Positions 5,106-59,196 of a DNA stretch of 64,000 bases are shown here, in pieces. Every line of letters begins with the position of its first letter. Position 1 is the first letter of the stretch. Origin of the DNA: a phage. Position numbers and translations under genes: made by a program. The stretch lies in the sequence record OZ346212.1; one strand, 5' to 3'. The notes under the pieces are model-generated. The model was not told the origin of the DNA. It made no database searches and worked only from the letters and a program-made list of their open reading frames with translations.

Positions 5106-5134
5106 TTGACAACAGTCATAGGGCCTACTATAAT
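5106..5134 (+). promoter_or_regulatory. sigma70-type promoter (TTGACA-17-TATAAT)
   Basis: Perfect -35 and -10 hexamers with 17-nt spacer upstream of gene 5166. Confidence 0.6.
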
Positions 5135-5165
5135 GGCCCTATCAAAACGAAAGGGGACCACAGCA

Positions 5166-13123: not shown

Positions 13124-13309
13124 ATGAAAACCACTACCTTTAATTTTGATAATGCAGACTTTTCTTTTTCTGATGTCAAGAACTGCCGCCGTGATCGTGG
13201 ATTTTACAAGGCTTATAATCTGGTGGGCCTGGACGATGACAATAATTTGCACGAAGTAGCTGAGATCCAGCTTGACAGATTGGACGGGAAAGTACTAAAA
13301 ACTTATTGA
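13124..13309 (+). CDS. hypothetical protein (61 aa)
   Basis: SD AAGAGGA then ATG. Confidence 0.55.
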   Translation: MKTTTFNFDNADFSFSDVKNCRRDRGFYKAYNLVGLDDDNNLHEVAEIQLDRLDGKVLKTY

Positions 13310-13310
13310 G

Positions 13311-13357
13311 TTTATTTTTAGATGGCCTTGACACCAGGGCCATCAATAAAGTAAACT
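13311..13357 (+). repeat. intergenic palindromic element, copy 1 (GATGGCC-TTGACACCA-GGCCATC)
   Basis: TTATTTTTAGATGGCCTTGACACCAGGGCCATCAATAAAGTAAAC; near-identical copies at 13933 and 17650, degenerate copy at 14266. Confidence 0.7.
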
Positions 13358-13509
13358 AACCACAGTTGAGCGGAAAAGGAGGCTTAAAGATGAGCACTAC
13401 ACGCCAGCACACAAAGGTAACCATCATCGTTTGCATCATTGGGTACATCCTGGCGCAAATGTTGATGGGTAGCGCCAACGGTGTCGCAAAATTTTTCTTA
13501 AACTTTTAA

Positions 13510-13537
13510 TTGACAAGCTAACTTAAATCGATATAAT
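13510..13537 (+). promoter_or_regulatory. sigma70-type promoter (TTGACA-16-TATAAT)
   Basis: Consensus hexamers about 79 nt upstream of ATG 13589. Confidence 0.6.
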
Positions 13538-13588
13538 AAGCACATAAACGGGAAAACTTCCCAGAACACACAAAAGGAGAAAAACACC

Positions 13589-13930
13589 ATGACTACTATG
13601 ACCGCCTCAGAAAAAGCTATGCAGATCGCTGAACTGAAAAAACAGATCGCAGACCTTGAGAATAAGATCGATAACTTTGAAATCGACGAGGACAAGTACG
13701 ACGAAAACTATGATGAATGGTTAGACGAGATCTACGGCGAAATTATGATCGGAAACATTTCTTTTCTTCCGTCGCGTATCCTCAAGGAGCTAGATCCTAT
13801 CGCTTACCGCTGCGGATTTAGCGACTACATCGACAGCCTGGATATTGAGGACGATGAAGAATACCAGGAATTACAGACAGAGTTAGAAGAAGCAAAAGAA
13901 GAGCTTGCGGAGCTGGAAGAAAACGAGTAA
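13589..13930 (+). CDS. hypothetical acidic coiled-coil protein (113 aa)
   Basis: SD AAGGAGA; D/E-rich with heptad-like N-terminus. Confidence 0.55.
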   Translation: MTTMTASEKAMQIAELKKQIADLENKIDNFEIDEDKYDENYDEWLDEIYGEIMIGNISFLPSRILKELDPIAYRCGFSDYIDSLDIEDDEEYQELQTELEEAKEELAELEENE

Positions 13931-13932
13931 GC

Positions 13933-13978
13933 TTATTTTTAGATGGCCTTGACACCAGGGCCATCAATAAAGTAAACT
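13933..13978 (+). repeat. intergenic palindromic element, copy 2
   Basis: Identical core to copy 1, directly after stop of 13589-13930. Confidence 0.7.
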
Positions 13979-14019
13979 TTATACTGTTAACACTGAACTA
14001 ATGCATAGGAGTTAAAACC

Positions 14020-14265
14020 ATGGCAGCACTAATCACCAAATATTATGCCCCTACCAACACCAAAAGCGCCCGTATCATGGTAAAAGGCTTCGGACGTAAA
14101 AAGGTGTACACCTGGGATTATGCCTTAGACACGGAAGACAACTACACCAACGCAATGACCGATTTTATTAATGAACTAAATAAGCAGATCTTGACAAGTT
14201 ATAAAGTGACCGATATTGCTTATATAGGTGAAGGCGGGATCTGTTTTGTAGGCATTGTGAAATAG
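14020..14265 (+). CDS. hypothetical protein (81 aa)
   Basis: SD TAGGAG then ATG. Confidence 0.55.
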   Translation: MAALITKYYAPTNTKSARIMVKGFGRKKVYTWDYALDTEDNYTNAMTDFINELNKQILTSYKVTDIAYIGEGGICFVGIVK

Positions 14266-14339
14266 TTATTTTTTCGGTGGTCCTGGTTGCAGGGCCATCT
14301 ATAAAGATAATTTATTAACACCATGAAAGGAGAAAGTAC

Positions 14340-14693
14340 ATGATCAGCGGGGCAAGTTTTATTATTGGCGCTATTGCTACGGCTTTAATTGTAAATAAGA
14401 TCCAGGATAAAAAGGAAAGAGGAAGTACCGCCCTTGCAGAATATCCATTTTGGGCATTCAACGATAACGAAGATTATATTATAAAGTATAAAAATAAAGA
14501 AGGTGACCAAGTAACACCGCGACCGATCCCGGCTTACAAAATGCAGGAAACACTATACCGCCTGGAGGCGGGTGGCGCAAAAATTGTAGACTTTTGGGGA
14601 TACGACCACACAGATCAGGAAGTTATAAAGCGCCGTATCCGGGCTATTCAGGCCAATATTGAAGTTAGCAAGGGGGGAATATATGAAAATTAA
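14340..14693 (+). CDS. hypothetical protein with N-terminal transmembrane segment
   Basis: SD AAAGGAGAAAG; hydrophobic N-terminus SFIIGAIATALIV. Confidence 0.55.
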   Translation: MISGASFIIGAIATALIVNKIQDKKERGSTALAEYPFWAFNDNEDYIIKYKNKEGDQVTPRPIPAYKMQETLYRLEAGGAKIVDFWGYDHTDQEVIKRRIRAIQANIEVSKGGIYEN

Positions 14694-14880
14694 TTTCGAG
14701 AAAATTGTAAAGCGCCCTCATGATTCCGAAGAGCTGCCAGAACGCCGCCAGCGTAACAATAAACTGAATAAGCCAAAAAGGTTTGGGAAGATCTGGCGTA
14801 ATCATTATGATCGTAAATTGCCCGGCCTACTTTTGGAACGTGAACGACAGGCAGAACGATACCGCCATAAAGACAAATAA
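14683..14880 (+). CDS. hypothetical basic protein
   Basis: Internal ATG 14683 after AAGGGGGG; R/K-rich. Confidence 0.45.
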   Translation: MKINFEKIVKRPHDSEELPERRQRNNKLNKPKRFGKIWRNHYDRKLPGLLLERERQAERYRHKDK

Positions 14881-14888
14881 CAACCAAC

Positions 14889-14917
14889 GCCCCGCCATTG
14901 TGCGGGGCTTTTTATTT
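14889..14917 (+). terminator. rho-independent terminator
   Basis: GCCCCGC-cattgt-GCGGGGC followed by TTTTTATTT. Confidence 0.7.
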
Positions 14918-15037
14918 CTATCCTACGAATAGCGCCCCTGGTTGGCCCTGTAAGCGCCAAAAAGGCCCCCACCTATGCAATCGCCCCTTTAACCTGAAAA
15001 CATCGCCCAGGGCCGTTTCATGGCGTTAAAAATATCA

Positions 15038-15065
15038 TTGACATCGTCAACAGGTTAGCTATACT
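15038..15065 (+). promoter_or_regulatory. sigma70-type promoter (TTGACA-16-TATACT)
   Basis: Hexamers 60 nt upstream of ATG 15098. Confidence 0.6.
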
Positions 15066-15097
15066 AACCACATCAAAGAGAGAAAGGAGTAAACGCC

Positions 15098-15358
15098 ATG
15101 CGTAAATTAAAAAATTTTGATAAAGTTGATGTTATCCTGAATAATTTTTACTACTGCAACAACAAGGCTATTTGGTGGCGTGATAGTTCCACCGATAAAG
15201 TCAGGGCGCGCTTTCTTCAGGGGCACTGGCAAGGCCGCCCAGTGATTAAAATCATGGGGCAATCGGTAGCGTTTAAAAATTGCCGCCGTGTTGATGACGT
15301 TGAGGAGATTTTAAACATTTTGCGCCACAATAATTTAAAAAATAGTGTTGACAAGTAA
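15098..15358 (+). CDS. hypothetical protein (86 aa)
   Basis: SD AAAGGAG then ATG. Confidence 0.55.
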   Translation: MRKLKNFDKVDVILNNFYYCNNKAIWWRDSSTDKVRARFLQGHWQGRPVIKIMGQSVAFKNCRRVDDVEEILNILRHNNLKNSVDK

Positions 15359-15375
15359 GCCTCAATAAGTATACT
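15348..15375 (+). promoter_or_regulatory. sigma70-type promoter (TTGACA-16-TATACT)
   Basis: Overlaps last codons of upstream gene; followed by leader hairpin GGCGGGAA-aac-TTCCCGCC. Confidence 0.6.
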
Positions 15376-15432
15376 TAAACACACAGGCGGGAAAACTTCC
15401 CGCCACTAACAAAGAAAATAGGAGAAAATATC

Positions 15433-16056
15433 ATGACCACCGTTAACATTACCGCAGGTTACAATTTATCTTTCGACGTGCTGACCGACGAACAAAAAGA
15501 AAAAGCCGTTGAAATGGTCCGCGAAAGAGAAGAACACAGCGGGGATAACTTTTTTGCAGAAAGTGTAATTGAATACTATAAAGAATATGTTTTTCCAGAG
15601 TATGGCCTTGAAGATACCGAAGTACATTGGTCAGGCTTTTGGTGCCAGGGTGACGGCGCGTCAATCAGTGCTGAAAACGTGGATTTAGAAAAATTTTTAC
15701 GTAAAGTAAAGGCCCTGACCAAGTTCCGATCAATTCGTCACTTGTTCGGCACAATGCACGATGGCGAGTTATCAGCCAGTGTTGAACGCGACAAGTACAG
15801 CCATTACAGCCATGAAAACACTGTAAGCGGGTACATTGATACCACTTGGCTAGATCTGACCGCCAAACAAGAAAACAAAGTGGAAGACCTGGAAGAACTG
15901 ATCACCGAGACGGTACGGGAGCTATCCCGCAAGGTTTACGTAGACCTGGAGGAGGCCTATCTAGAACAGTTCACCGCAGAAAACCTGATCGGCCTTATCG
16001 AGGCCAATGATTGGCGGTTTGATGTCGATGAATATGGTGAGATGACTTTTTCATAA
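15433..16056 (+). CDS. hypothetical acidic protein (207 aa)
   Basis: SD TAGGAGA; strongly D/E-rich. Confidence 0.6.
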   Translation: MTTVNITAGYNLSFDVLTDEQKEKAVEMVREREEHSGDNFFAESVIEYYKEYVFPEYGLEDTEVHWSGFWCQGDGASISAENVDLEKFLRKVKALTKFRSIRHLFGTMHDGELSASVERDKYSHYSHENTVSGYIDTTWLDLTAKQENKVEDLEELITETVRELSRKVYVDLEEAYLEQFTAENLIGLIEANDWRFDVDEYGEMTFS

Positions 16057-16146
16057 ATAAAGTGTTGCAATAACCTAAAAACCTGCTATATTAAAACTCA
16101 AGGGGGCAAGACGTTTGCCCCAACACAAAACAAAGAGGATAACATC

Positions 16147-16527
16147 ATGAAAAACACTACCAAGGCTATTGACACCGTTATGTTTAACCTGGTTACATTC
16201 CGTGAAGATATGAAAGATCTTCCTCGTGAAACAGTGTGCGACCATATCGAAAACTATCGCAAACTAATCAAAGAGTTGCCTTTAAAACGTGATCAATATG
16301 CGGCTAACGCCATGCTTAATGCCATGATCAAAAAGATGATCCAGTGTGATTTAACCCTGGCCTATGATTATGCAGGCGGTCGTTTTGCAGTATACAATCA
16401 GCCCGTGCCCGGTATGAGCACCACCGAAGAATTGCACGCGCTCAATCTAAAACAAGACGTGTGGGATAGTATGCCTCGCGTGGTGGTATGGGTAGAAAGC
16501 GGAAAGATTTACGGCGATAATTTTTAA
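16147..16527 (+). CDS. hypothetical protein (126 aa)
   Basis: SD AAGAGGA then ATG. Confidence 0.55.
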   Translation: MKNTTKAIDTVMFNLVTFREDMKDLPRETVCDHIENYRKLIKELPLKRDQYAANAMLNAMIKKMIQCDLTLAYDYAGGRFAVYNQPVPGMSTTEELHALNLKQDVWDSMPRVVVWVESGKIYGDNF

Positions 16528-16536
16528 TCAGGTAGC

Positions 16537-16563
16537 AGGCGGCATATTTGCCGCCTTATTGTT
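16537..16563 (+). terminator. rho-independent terminator
   Basis: AGGCGGCA-tatt-TGCCGCCT followed by TATTGTT. Confidence 0.6.
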
Positions 16564-16591
16564 AATCAGAACTGTAAAAGAGGTACATAGA

Positions 16592-16963
16592 ATGGAATTT
16601 ATTATTTTGGCTGTATTGGTTGCCTTGTTTAACGCCTGGATCGCTGGCAAGATGGGAAGATCCGCCTTTTTATGGTTTATTATATCTATTTTCCTGGGGG
16701 TGGTTGCAACTATTGTATTGGTTATCCTTGCAATTGTTGACAAGGGGAATAATAGAAAGGGTAAAGTATTTTCAGACCTGTACGACGCTCAAACGTTTGT
16801 CAACGCCTATTATAGTGATCTTCCAGTCTCCCTACGTTGCAGCCTTGCACAACAGGTTTTCGATGAAGCTAAAACCAGAGATCACGCCCATGAGATTTGT
16901 TTAACTGAGGCGGATCGCCTATTTGAGAGGAATAGAAAATATGTGGACCAGCCGTTTAAATAA
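16592..16963 (+). CDS. hypothetical membrane protein (two predicted TM helices)
   Basis: ATG 16592 after AAAGAGG; IILAVLVALFNAWIAG and FLWFIISIFLGVVATIVLVILAIV hydrophobic stretches. Confidence 0.55.
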   Translation: MEFIILAVLVALFNAWIAGKMGRSAFLWFIISIFLGVVATIVLVILAIVDKGNNRKGKVFSDLYDAQTFVNAYYSDLPVSLRCSLAQQVFDEAKTRDHAHEICLTEADRLFERNRKYVDQPFK

Positions 16964-17306
16964 TGCCACGTTAATTAACCCCTTTAGTAAAGATTTGAAG
17001 CCAGCCGCCTGGCGGGATGGATTCAATAACGAACGCTTTATTTTCAGGCCTGATCTTGAGGAATTTTATAACAATGGATCGAACAACAGCGGAGATAATT
17101 TTTCTTGTGGTGTGTGTCGTGATAGGACTCCTGGGGGCCATTGTAGATCGCGTCACTACTACCAGAAGGAAAGGGGGAGACGATGACAACCAAGGATAAG
17201 CCCCGCACCGATAAGGTGCGCCGTGTTATGGTATGGCTTGAGATCATCGCCCTTGAAATATTGTTAGGCGTAGGGATGTATTTTATCTCTGTAAGTAACT
17301 GATAAC

Positions 17307-17338
17307 GGCCCCCGATCCCTGGGGGGCCTAACTTTTTT
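17307..17338 (+). terminator. rho-independent terminator
   Basis: GGCCCCC-gatccct-GGGGGGCC followed by TAACTTTTTTC. Confidence 0.65.
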
Positions 17339-17445
17339 CAAAAAATTTTTCTTCCGGGGTGTTGCAATCCGGTCCTGAATATGGATAATAACAATCAACG
17401 GGGAAACATCCCCACCAACACAAAAACCAGAAAGGAGAAACAAAA

Positions 17446-17646
17446 ATGAGCAACAATATCCGCGTTATTAACTTCAAAAAAGAAGAAAAAATTGCCGTGC
17501 TGATTGACGGTCAAGAAATCTTCAAGGGCGACTATGAAGATCATCAAACGGCGATTAGTATCACTCGCGTGATTGGTTACCATAATTTTTACCCCCAAGG
17601 CGCTGAGGCGGCGGTTAAACGAATCAAAGAGATTGTAGGCCTGTAA
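17446..17646 (+). CDS. hypothetical protein (66 aa)
   Basis: TTGCAA/GATAAT promoter, leader hairpin, SD AAAGGAGA. Confidence 0.55.
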   Translation: MSNNIRVINFKKEEKIAVLIDGQEIFKGDYEDHQTAISITRVIGYHNFYPQGAEAAVKRIKEIVGL

Positions 17647-17649
17647 AAT

Positions 17650-17695
17650 TTATTTTTAGATGGCCTTGACTCTAGGGCCATCAATAAAGTAAATT
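17650..17695 (+). repeat. intergenic palindromic element, copy 3 (TTGACT variant)
   Basis: TTATTTTTAGATGGCCTTGACTCTAGGGCCATCAATAAAGTAAAT. Confidence 0.7.
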
Positions 17696-17739
17696 TAAAC
17701 CCTGTTAAAATACCACGCAGTTAACAAGGAGTAATGATC

Positions 17740-18039
17740 ATGTTTATCCAGGCTAATAATCTTTATTTCTTTGATGGTCAGATCGTAGATGGTGTGGAAG
17801 TGGAGATCACTGGGTGCCCTGGTGGTCAGGCTATGACTTTTCGGAATAATGCCTTTGATGATTCTCATATCGTTATGAGAATGGAAGTTACAAAGCTGGA
17901 CGACAAGAAAACGCTCATTGACTATTCCGTGAAAGATCATCCAGACTACCACATGATCTATGGTGATTTGTGCATTGTTGACCGTGACAAGGTGGGCGGC
18001 ATTGTGATCGCTATTGTGAACGATGTTTTCTCTGTATAG
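17740..18039 (+). CDS. hypothetical protein
   Basis: Second ATG (17740) has better spacing from SD AAGGAG than track start 17734. Confidence 0.55.
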   Translation: MFIQANNLYFFDGQIVDGVEVEITGCPGGQAMTFRNNAFDDSHIVMRMEVTKLDDKKTLIDYSVKDHPDYHMIYGDLCIVDRDKVGGIVIAIVNDVFSV

Positions 18040-18097
18040 TTCCGGCAAATGATGCAAAATAAGGCCCCTAGCAGGGCCTACAGCGATATAATCACAT

Positions 18098-18130
18098 AAA
18101 GGCCATGCAACCGCATGGCCTTTATTATTT
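18098..18130 (+). terminator. rho-independent terminator
   Basis: AAGGCCATGC-aacc-GCATGGCCTT followed by TATTATTTT. Confidence 0.7.
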
Positions 18131-18617: not shown

Positions 18618-18851
18618 ATGATGGAACAAATTAAACGCGCTGAGGCTATTAATGGCAATGTAATCTATTTTGTCAGCAAAAACGAAAAAGGCGTACCCTA
18701 TGCGGCGGTAATAGTACAGCCTGACGGCGATTATTGGTGCACTGTGTACGGCGCTTATTCTTTTGGGCGTCCAGTGCATGATAAAATTTTGAAAGTAGCG
18801 AACCCTACCGGGAAAAATATTACAGCAGAAAAATTTTTTGAAAAAAGTTGA
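18618..18851 (+). CDS. hypothetical protein
   Basis: ATG 18618 after AAGAGG; track ORF starts 18591. Confidence 0.5.
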   Translation: MMEQIKRAEAINGNVIYFVSKNEKGVPYAAVIVQPDGDYWCTVYGAYSFGRPVHDKILKVANPTGKNITAEKFFEKS

Positions 18852-58594: not shown

Positions 58595-59149
58595 ATGAAA
58601 TACTTTGTAACAAGCGACACACACTTTCTCCACCAGCGGGTCATGGAGTTTGATTCATGTCAAAAACACAGATCTCAGTATGATCACAATCTTGACAGTA
58701 TGAATGCAGGAATCATCGCCGAGTGGAACTCTGTTGTGTCACCTGCAGACACTGTGTTCCACTTGGGAGATATTGCGTGCACTAATGATAAGAATATCAA
58801 CAACTTACTTCCAGATATTCTAAATATGTTGAACGGACATATTATTCTTGTTCGTGGCAACCATGACACAAGGACGACTGTCAGAATTATGAAAGAGTTC
58901 GGTCATGAGGTTGTAGATTATTACGAGCTTCGCCACAACAAGAATTTGATCTGTATGAGCCATTACCAGTTTGCAAAGTGGAACAGAAAGCCTCACGGAT
59001 CAGTCCAACTGTTCGGTCATGCTCACGGAACCACACAACAGTTGTTTGGCAGGCAGCTTGATGTCGGTTGGGATGTGTGGGGGAGACTCTTACCATTAGA
59101 AGAGGCATACCGTATTGCAATGAGTTTTGATATTGACAGCAGGGAGTAA
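58595..59149 (+). CDS. calcineurin-like metallophosphoesterase
   Basis: MPP motifs SDTHF, GDIAC, GNHD; ATG 58595 after GAGGA. Confidence 0.65.
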   Translation: MKYFVTSDTHFLHQRVMEFDSCQKHRSQYDHNLDSMNAGIIAEWNSVVSPADTVFHLGDIACTNDKNINNLLPDILNMLNGHIILVRGNHDTRTTVRIMKEFGHEVVDYYELRHNKNLICMSHYQFAKWNRKPHGSVQLFGHAHGTTQQLFGRQLDVGWDVWGRLLPLEEAYRIAMSFDIDSRE

Positions 59150-59196
59150 TCCCTGCTATTTTAAAGAAAATTGCCACACAAGGAGAATCAGGAGAT

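Follow-up and report, generated by a model that had tools for sequence, protein, structure and literature searches.

A conserved promoter/stem-loop element between small early genes of rV5-like coliphages, with a putative role as a processing or 3'-end signal of early transcripts

The 64,000-nucleotide stretch of phage DNA analysed here (sequence record OZ346212.1, hereafter the window) contains a repeated intergenic element of about 49 nt, four copies of which follow the stop codons of small open reading frames (ORFs) between positions 13309 and 17695. Our analysis shows that this element is real and conserved. We read it as a fairly ordinary promoter/stem-loop cassette, whose function we infer from its sequence and its variation among relatives, and its closest match in kind is the promoter-early stem-loop (PeSL) cassette of T4-like phages, to which it adds variant traits. 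The object under selection is, with high confidence, an RNA hairpin on the sense (+) strand. We regard the chances as evenly balanced that this hairpin acts as a processing or 3'-end signal, combined in copies 1-3 with a promoter. Between 12500 and 18500, the window shares 93-95% identity with about 120 genomes of Vequintavirus (rV5-like, ~137 kb) E. coli myoviruses, and on this sequence identity it is assigned to the early-gene region of an rV5-like coliphage. All copies are located amid a run of small + strand ORFs to which no function is assigned; the corresponding gene cluster of rV5 has been treated as a set of sigma-70-driven transcription units (PMC3606486).

The core of the element is the inverted repeat GATGGCC-N10-GGCCATC, which occurs three times in the window (13321-13344, 13942-13965 and 17659-17682) and in none of 100 shuffled sequences. 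The surrounding 45-mer TTATTTTTAGATGGCCTTGACACCAGGGCCATCAATAAAGTAAAC is present without mismatch at 13312-13356 and 13933-13977 (copies 1 and 2) and with 3 mismatches at 17650-17694 (copy 3), and a degenerate copy 4 (14267-14311) differs from it at 14 positions, compared with 19 for the next-best background match on the + strand. An earlier sequence-only reading of the window had described the palindrome, its occurrence behind the stop codons of three unrelated early genes, and a degenerate fourth copy, all of which is borne out by these matches. The seven flanking proteins fall into seven separate PHROG families, none of them with a known function, and none of the seven received a Pfam assignment. 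A covariance model of the element family, run over the 64 kb, recovered these four sites only, with 70-81 bits on the + strand and 34-43 bits for the same sites on the - strand; nothing else exceeded 13 bits, and no further diverged copies were found in the window. Each copy begins 2-4 nt past a stop codon (of the ORFs ending at 13309, 13930, 14265 and 17646), and all four end 28-45 nt ahead of the next start codon.

The palindrome extends beyond the arms recognized in the sequence-only reading, and the T-run upstream of it pairs with the downstream AAAGTAAA. On the + strand, one minimum free energy fold is common to all four copies (4/4), a bipartite hairpin of ~49 nt with -23.1 to -26.5 kcal/mol and z-scores of -4.1 to -5.4, and none of 200 shuffled sequences folds as well. 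It consists of a GC-rich upper stem of 10 bp (GAUGGCCUUG / CAGGGCCAUC, including one U.G pair) with a tetraloop (ACAC or ACUC in copies 1-3, GUUG in copy 4), a conserved internal loop of 2x3 nt (UA / AAU), and an A/U-rich lower stem of 8-13 bp, in which the upstream U-run is paired with the downstream AAAGUAAA(C/U) and whose first base is also the final one of the stop codon. Copy 4 retains the fold via G.U pairs and compensatory swaps, and in copy 3 the C->T difference in the '-10' has a G->A partner across the lower stem. We also considered whether the ORF ends pair with a downstream C(A/T)GTTAA motif to give a third, outer helix, and set this aside because its support is too weak. The four hairpins are arranged as follows:

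13309-13357, + strand: copy 1 hairpin, dG -26.5 kcal/mol, z -5.4; starts at the last stop-codon base of the ORF 13124-13309, next start codon at 13390.
13309-13318 / 13348-13357, + strand: copy 1 lower stem.
13319-13320 / 13345-13347, + strand: copy 1 internal loop.
13321-13330 / 13335-13344, + strand: copy 1 upper stem, with loop ACAC at 13331-13334.
13930-13978, + strand: copy 2 hairpin, 45 nt identical to copy 1, dG -23.5 kcal/mol, z -4.6; directly after the stop codon of the ORF 13589-13930, next start codon at 14020.
14264-14312, + strand: copy 4 (degenerate) hairpin, loop GTTG, -26.5 kcal/mol and z -4.1 on the + strand, 70.2 bits; after the stop codon of the ORF 14020-14265, next start codon at 14340, without a promoter between.
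17647-17695, + strand: copy 3 hairpin, loop ACTC with closing pair G.U, dG -23.1 kcal/mol, z -4.2; after the ORF 17446-17646, next start codon at 17734 or 17740.

Evidence for selection on this fold was obtained from 86 copies at 24 Vequintavirus loci, which comprise 50 distinct 60-nt sequences. Without structural guidance, RNAalifold returned the same bipartite structure, and 97.9% of the pair cells are paired, a share that drops to 34-56% if the 3' partners are shifted by 1-3 columns; neither the percentage paired nor the covariation score was matched in any of 500 shuffles. Lower-stem pairs in which both sides have changed are 6-52 (GC/AU/GU), 7-51 (UA/CG), 9-49 (UA/GU/AU/GC) and 10-48 (AU/UA). 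Within copy 4 alone, compared across phages, pair 9-49 passes from A-U through G.U to G-C and pair 7-51 from U-A to C-G, and the double change of copy 3 at pair 6-52 (G-C to A-U) recurs in copy 1 of a metagenomic genome (locus L100). Changes in the upper stem are mostly compatible with pairing (A-U to G.U, C-G to U.G and the reverse, U.G to C-G or U-A, G-C to G.U), leaving 3 of 500 cells unpaired. Furthermore, 129 of 1000 cells (12.9%) are G.U or U.G wobbles, among them invariant U.G pairs at 11-47 and 24-33, and because such wobbles become A.C mismatches on the - strand, the pairing fits + strand RNA only. The covariance model likewise scores the - strand ~35-40 bits below the + strand, and the - strand fold of copy 4 (-11.5 kcal/mol, z -0.5) is no better than those of shuffled sequences. 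Taken as RNA, the hairpin does not belong to a known family, as no entry of Rfam 15 overlapped any copy at E<=1.

These data bear directly on the reading that the earlier account of the window had placed first, a regulated promoter whose palindrome is an operator embedded for a dimeric phage or host repressor. We consider such an operator highly improbable, although a perfect 7-bp inverted repeat does surround a -35-like hexamer in three copies and TTGAC is conserved. The half-sites of copy 4 (GGTGGTC / GGCCATC) are asymmetric at the DNA level and TTGACA is missing from it, yet this copy is conserved throughout the genus; its A->G, C->T and T->C changes preserve pairing solely as G.U or C-G in + strand RNA, and the operator idea is therefore unsupported, the fold having been kept while half-site symmetry and TTGACA were lost. 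Across the family, the substitutions maintain RNA pairing and not the symmetry of DNA half-sites, which led us to reject a DNA operator, and at 11-47 and 24-33 the invariant T.G 'pairs' would not match in DNA. In addition, the selected pairing reaches at least 10 bp beyond the arms into A/T-rich sequence, and the half-site centres are 17 bp apart, a spacing that is off helical phase for typical dimers. The processing site that the same account had offered as an alternative is better supported than its operator.

Superimposed on the hairpin, copies 1-3 contain TTGAC(A/T)-18 bp-TAAA(C/T)T, with 10/12, 10/12 and 9/12 matches to the sigma-70 consensus, and transcription from copy 1 is predicted to start near 13364. 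The T-run of the copies lies at the position (about -52 to -45) where the distal UP subsite sits. The promoter-like features are the following:

13328-13357, + strand: copy 1 sigma-70-like promoter, TTGACA at 13328-13333 and TAAACT at 13352-13357.
13312-13319, + strand: copy 1 T-run, at about -52 to -45, the UP-element position.
13949-13954 and 13973-13978, + strand: copy 2 promoter hexamers, TTGACA and TAAACT.
17666-17671 and 17690-17695, + strand: copy 3 promoter hexamers, TTGACT and TAAATT.

The sequence-only remark that no good -10 exists at 17 bp is literally true but overlooked TAAACT/TAAATT at 18 bp, and the promoter that it envisaged is plausible for these three copies but not for copy 4, which has CTGGTT in place of the -35. 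Selection on the -35 is supported by a comparison of 71 type 1-3 copies, in which the AC of TTGAC (loop positions 27-28) has changed 0 and 1 times and positions 29-30 vary freely (A15/T49/G5/C2 and C58/T13). PhagePromoter annotations in the record of phage Gotham also put promoters at copies 2 and 3. On this sequence evidence, it could go either way whether copies 1-3 are active as promoters.

As to transcription termination, the sequence-only reading had denied that the element is a canonical terminator, a view that holds on both strands: the T-rich run lies ahead of the stem, the 3' tail AATAAAGTAAAC is not T-rich (AAUAAAGUAAAC on the + strand, with 2 U in 12), and the - strand tail is UAAAAAUAA. 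A terminator scan called none of the element copies, and did call terminators nearby, such as the one at 14889-14908 followed by TTTTTATTT. An intrinsic (Rho-independent) terminator was thus rejected, with no U-tract 3' of the stem on either strand and all copies skipped by the scan. The element might still be an attenuator or terminator joined to a promoter, as in a classical PeSL or a 'promoter-coupled terminator', in which the hairpin would stop or damp read-through and the embedded promoter would restart transcription. We give this arrangement a minor share of the probability. Consistent with it, the hairpin is strong (-23 to -26 kcal/mol), the GenBank record of phage Murica labels copies 3 and 4 as terminators, a PeSL stem-loop tested with a reporter lowered lacZ expression to roughly the same extent as rrnB T1 (PMC2839356), and terminator stem-loops that double as -35 elements have been shown in a preprint (Fletcher et al., bioRxiv 2026, 10.64898/2026.08.19.745784). 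Against it, the absence of a U-tract after the stem on both strands sets the element apart from the real terminators of the same region, and the stretch from stem to '-10' reads AATAAAG here versus a T-tract in the promoter-coupled terminators of the preprint. Furthermore, polymerase must read through copy 4, because no promoter is present between this copy and the conserved genes from 14340 onwards; an efficient stop at copy 4, which has neither a -35 nor a promoter downstream, would silence them.

The processing-site alternative of the sequence-only reading fits the data best, as the element is a hairpin of sense RNA that is supported by covariation and shares its geometry with the RNase III sites of phage T7. 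In our own folds, the intergenic hairpins of the T7 early region (sites R0.3, R0.5, R1, R1.1 and R1.3, at coordinates that we take to be those of Dunn & Studier 1983) have GC-rich upper stems of 9-10 bp, loops of 4-5 nt, asymmetric internal loops of 2x3 (R1) or 4x5 nt, and lower stems of 5-8 bp that begin at the preceding stop codon. In the sense intergenic RNA, the element offers a duplex of 20-23 bp (10 + 10-13 bp) that is interrupted by a 2x3 internal loop. About 22 bp of double-stranded RNA are needed by E. coli RNase III (PMC6212723). We favour an RNase III or 3'-end-stabilising function because of this T7-like geometry together with the lack of a U-tract; that the element is an RNase III site specifically is a real possibility by this analogy, though one we place a little short of even. 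According to the mechanism we propose, host RNase III would cut polycistronic early transcripts between genes, with cuts predicted in the 3' strand of the internal loop (near 13345-13347, 13966-13968, 14300-14302 and 17683-17685), and the upper stem would be left to cap the 3' end of the upstream message. In copies 1-3, with TTGAC in the apex and TAAA(C/T)T 18 bp further on, the promoter would then restart transcription for the next gene, such that the element would function as a PeSL-like 'end of message / start of message' cassette, of which copy 4 would represent a hairpin-only form.

Two other functions of the RNA hairpin were weighed. A simple barrier to 3'-to-5' exonucleases of the REP/BIME type, which would guard the upstream mRNA without a specific endonuclease cut, agrees with a stable intergenic hairpin that lies right after stop codons in polycistronic units and is selected on sense RNA. 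A GC stem would suffice for this purpose, however, leaving the conserved 2x3 internal loop and the covarying lower stem unexplained, and no sequence in the E. coli genomes searched resembles the element; we consider the barrier unlikely, and favour an RNase III signal because a plain barrier needs neither the internal loop nor a covarying lower stem. Binding of a phage protein, such as a translational repressor, stabiliser or antiterminator, through which the four flanking early genes are coordinated, would account for the conservation of hairpin shape, first loop nucleotides and internal loop, and for the presence of only four copies per genome. No candidate protein was found, however, the neighbouring genes being without Pfam assignment, and the loops differ between copy 4 (GYNR) and copies 1-3 (ACNY), making such a binding site very unlikely.

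Several points count against an RNA processing signal that is combined with a promoter. PeSL stem-loops have been reported as terminators in a reporter assay (PMC2839356), and by analogy attenuation may contribute here. With its spacer of 18 bp and its weaker -10, the promoter contrasts with the clear early promoters nearby, which are of the TTGACA-16/17-TATAAT type, and sites with at least 9/12 matches are common by chance in AT-rich DNA (57 found vs 30 expected in the scanned stretch). Two assemblies have a weakened -35 (TTTACT and TTGATT). The -10-like hexamer falls within the A/U-rich lower stem, and its conservation is accounted for by structure alone because of this position. The family is also shallow, being restricted to one genus with at least 88% identity and to paralogues that exchange sequence, and the independent covariation events are therefore few (~6-8). 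A deeper set for covariation analysis was not available because homologues of the 81-aa neighbour are confined to unrelated phages (Seuratvirus, Nonagvirus and Pseudomonas phages). Finally, neither a Vequintavirus transcriptome study nor transcript data were found in the searchable literature, and a look-up of assembled RNA-seq contigs returned long DNA contigs only.

Comparison with known systems points to the PeSL cassettes, which have been described from RB49/phi1, PST/T4 and nt-1/KVP40 (Arbiol et al. 2010, PMC2839356; Comeau et al. 2014, PMC4122927). Their layout comprises a stop codon, an AT-rich stretch, a sigma-70 promoter, a stem-loop, and a Shine-Dalgarno sequence with ATG, and they include a subclass with a stem-loop overlapping the -35, while recombination between neighbouring cassettes deletes ORFs (PMC2839356, PMC4122927). 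The element is similarly intergenic, filling the gap between a small early ORF's stop codon and the next Shine-Dalgarno/ATG in a variable (hyperplastic) early region, and shares with PeSLs a stable stem-loop over the -35 (-23 to -26.5 kcal/mol) and recombination between neighbouring copies, by which intervening ORFs were lost in 4 genomes here. The AT-rich stretch and the sigma-70-like -35/-10 of copies 1-3 may be a further likeness, at a level of matching that is common by chance. It differs in belonging to a Vequintavirus rather than a T4-like phage, and in number, with 3+1 copies against the motif-dense hyperplastic regions of RB49/phi1, so that the repeats are not dense in the PeSL sense. 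In contrast to PeSLs, the whole promoter-like sequence, UP-like T-run and -10 included, lies within a bipartite hairpin, the pairing is supported by covariation as RNA, one copy lacks the -35, the spacer is 18 bp, and neither a U-tract nor another terminator feature is present.

The T7 RNase III sites resemble the element in being repeated intergenic hairpins of sense early mRNA that begin at or beside a stop codon, and in our own fold of R1 the internal loop is likewise of 2x3 nt and reads AAU in its 3' strand. They differ in that no sequence homology or Rfam match connects the two, cleavage is only predicted for the element, and the lower stem of the element is almost pure A/U with promoter-like sequence superimposed. 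Repeated intergenic palindromes that are transcribed at gene 3' ends are likewise a feature of REP/BIME sequences, and the REP/BIME palindromes of E. coli can stabilise upstream mRNA. The element, unlike these, is phage-specific, bipartite, limited to four copies and overlaps promoter-like sequence, and had no match in a collection of 5,426 E. coli genomes, which led us to reject a host-derived (REP-like) repeat. Promoter-coupled terminators (Fletcher et al.) also unite a stem-loop and a -35 in one stretch of DNA between tandem genes; theirs end in a T-tract upstream of the -10 and terminate, whereas the element has AATAAAG at this place and its T-run on the wrong side of the stem.

Among 50,697 phage records searched by BLAST, the element was detected in 121, all of them Vequintavirus, at ~3 BLAST-detectable places per genome, and it occupies the same four positions in every genome examined. 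A 16-mer scan of IMG/VR yielded mainly chance matches and two rV5-like contigs, and a structure-aware pattern scan of metagenomes yielded rV5-like contigs only, the full-length ones of ~137 kb. Loop variants (ACAC, ACTC, ACTT, ACGC) and A41G are found in different paralogous copies across genomes, and this sharing suggests gene conversion between copies. The region also shows indels between relatives, one of which coincides with the interval between copies 1 and 2:

13358-13978, + strand: 621-bp repeat period from copy 1 to copy 2, with a 39-aa gene, a consensus promoter at 13510, a 113-aa gene and one element copy.

Exactly this period is missing in 4 genomes, namely magaca, ECP32, one IMG/VR contig and one Logan contig (loci L005, L006, L038 and L106), each of which retains a single hybrid copy with the 5' flank of copy 1 and the 3' flank of copy 2. 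The copies thus almost certainly act as recombination substrates, in the form of direct repeats of 45-60 bp.

Such a precise 621-bp deletion in natural isolates shows that the repeats shape gene content, and it identifies the genes of 39 and 113 aa as dispensable. Phages of the rV5 type are in wide use as candidates for therapy and biocontrol, yet the expression of their early genes has hardly been studied. Should the hairpins prove to be RNase III or stability signals that are combined with promoters, they would define the real mRNA units of the early-gene block. The idea of 'modular shuffling' proposed for PeSLs would then reach beyond T4-like phages, and the element would provide compact, portable parts for insulating expression. 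Annotators have been split between 'terminator' (copies 3 and 4 of Murica) and 'promoter' (copies 2 and 3 of Gotham), GenBank labels for the same element of which neither captures the evidence, and the rV5 reference record leaves the copies unannotated, as does the promoter/terminator table of the rV5 genome paper. A literature search found no paper that describes the element or holds its sequence in a phage context. A more speculative view, which we rate as a long shot, places a 'punctuation' cassette in phages other than the T4-like ones: a complete host-type promoter inside an RNase III-type hairpin would form a portable linker for swapping early genes among co-infecting rV5-like phages. 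RNA reading through would be cut at the very point where RNA polymerase re-initiates, and the message upstream of it would be capped there. A variant of this view would be a four-gene regulon hairpin for a phage RNA-binding protein.

Further combinations of promoters and stem-loops were observed in the window. At 5106-5142, TTGACA...ATAGGGCC-tacTATAAT-GGCCCTAT has a stem enclosing the -10, and at 59133-59162 TTGACA-GCAGGGAgtaaTCCCTGC-TATTTT has a stem that fills the spacer; these two composites correspond to further PeSL subclasses of RB49/phi1. 5'-proximal hairpins follow the promoters at 13510, 15348 and 18848. A second small hairpin family, GGGAAAACTTCCC, is present at 13550-13562 and 15389-15401 (2 exact copies vs 0.09 expected), ~11 nt downstream of the -10 of near-consensus promoters (TTGACA-16-TATAAT at 13510 and TTGACA-16-TATACT at 15348) and hence at the predicted 5' end of the mRNA, where it may serve as a 5' stabiliser. 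The hairpin after the promoter at 18848, GGGGGCAACAAGCCCC, is similar. From the two composites and the 5'-proximal hairpins together, the phage seems to use the promoter/stem-loop style generally.

Some genome records of the group deserve comment. The copy-1 orthologue of Gotham (locus L003, 7005-7049) has a 5-nt deletion (GGGCC), by which the 3' arm of the upper stem is lost and the -35/-10 spacing becomes 13 bp; this copy is probably dead or mis-assembled. Seventeen MG0656xx records named 'Campylobacter phage' (A142, A141, C12 and others; C. jejuni) are ~95% identical to rV5-like coliphages, the 3 that were fetched are all marked UNVERIFIED, and the Campylobacter host label of the 17 is probably wrong.

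Additional gene-content differences were found close to the copies. The 61-aa ORF upstream of copy 1 (13124-13309) is a chimera with its junction at 13262-13268, residues 1-50 matching phrog_7028 at its N-terminus and residues 17-61 matching phrog_13245 at its C-terminus. In relatives, this site holds ~690 bp more, encoding two full genes that are homologues of rV5 gp190 and gp189, which together with the chimera points to a deletion in the phage of the window with a 7-bp overlap at the junction. At the equivalent of 18032-18052, an extra gene of 351 nt is present in isim, magaca, FFH2 and others and lacking in the window, rV5 and Gotham; terminator-like hairpins are clustered next to this indel site (18062-18125). 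A 65-aa gene (~14683-14880), which lies two genes downstream of copy 4, carries Pfam PF08200 (Phage_T7_1_1, T7 gp1.1-like) according to precomputed matches for relatives, and the Murica record likewise carries a 'T7 gp1.1-like' remark for this gene.

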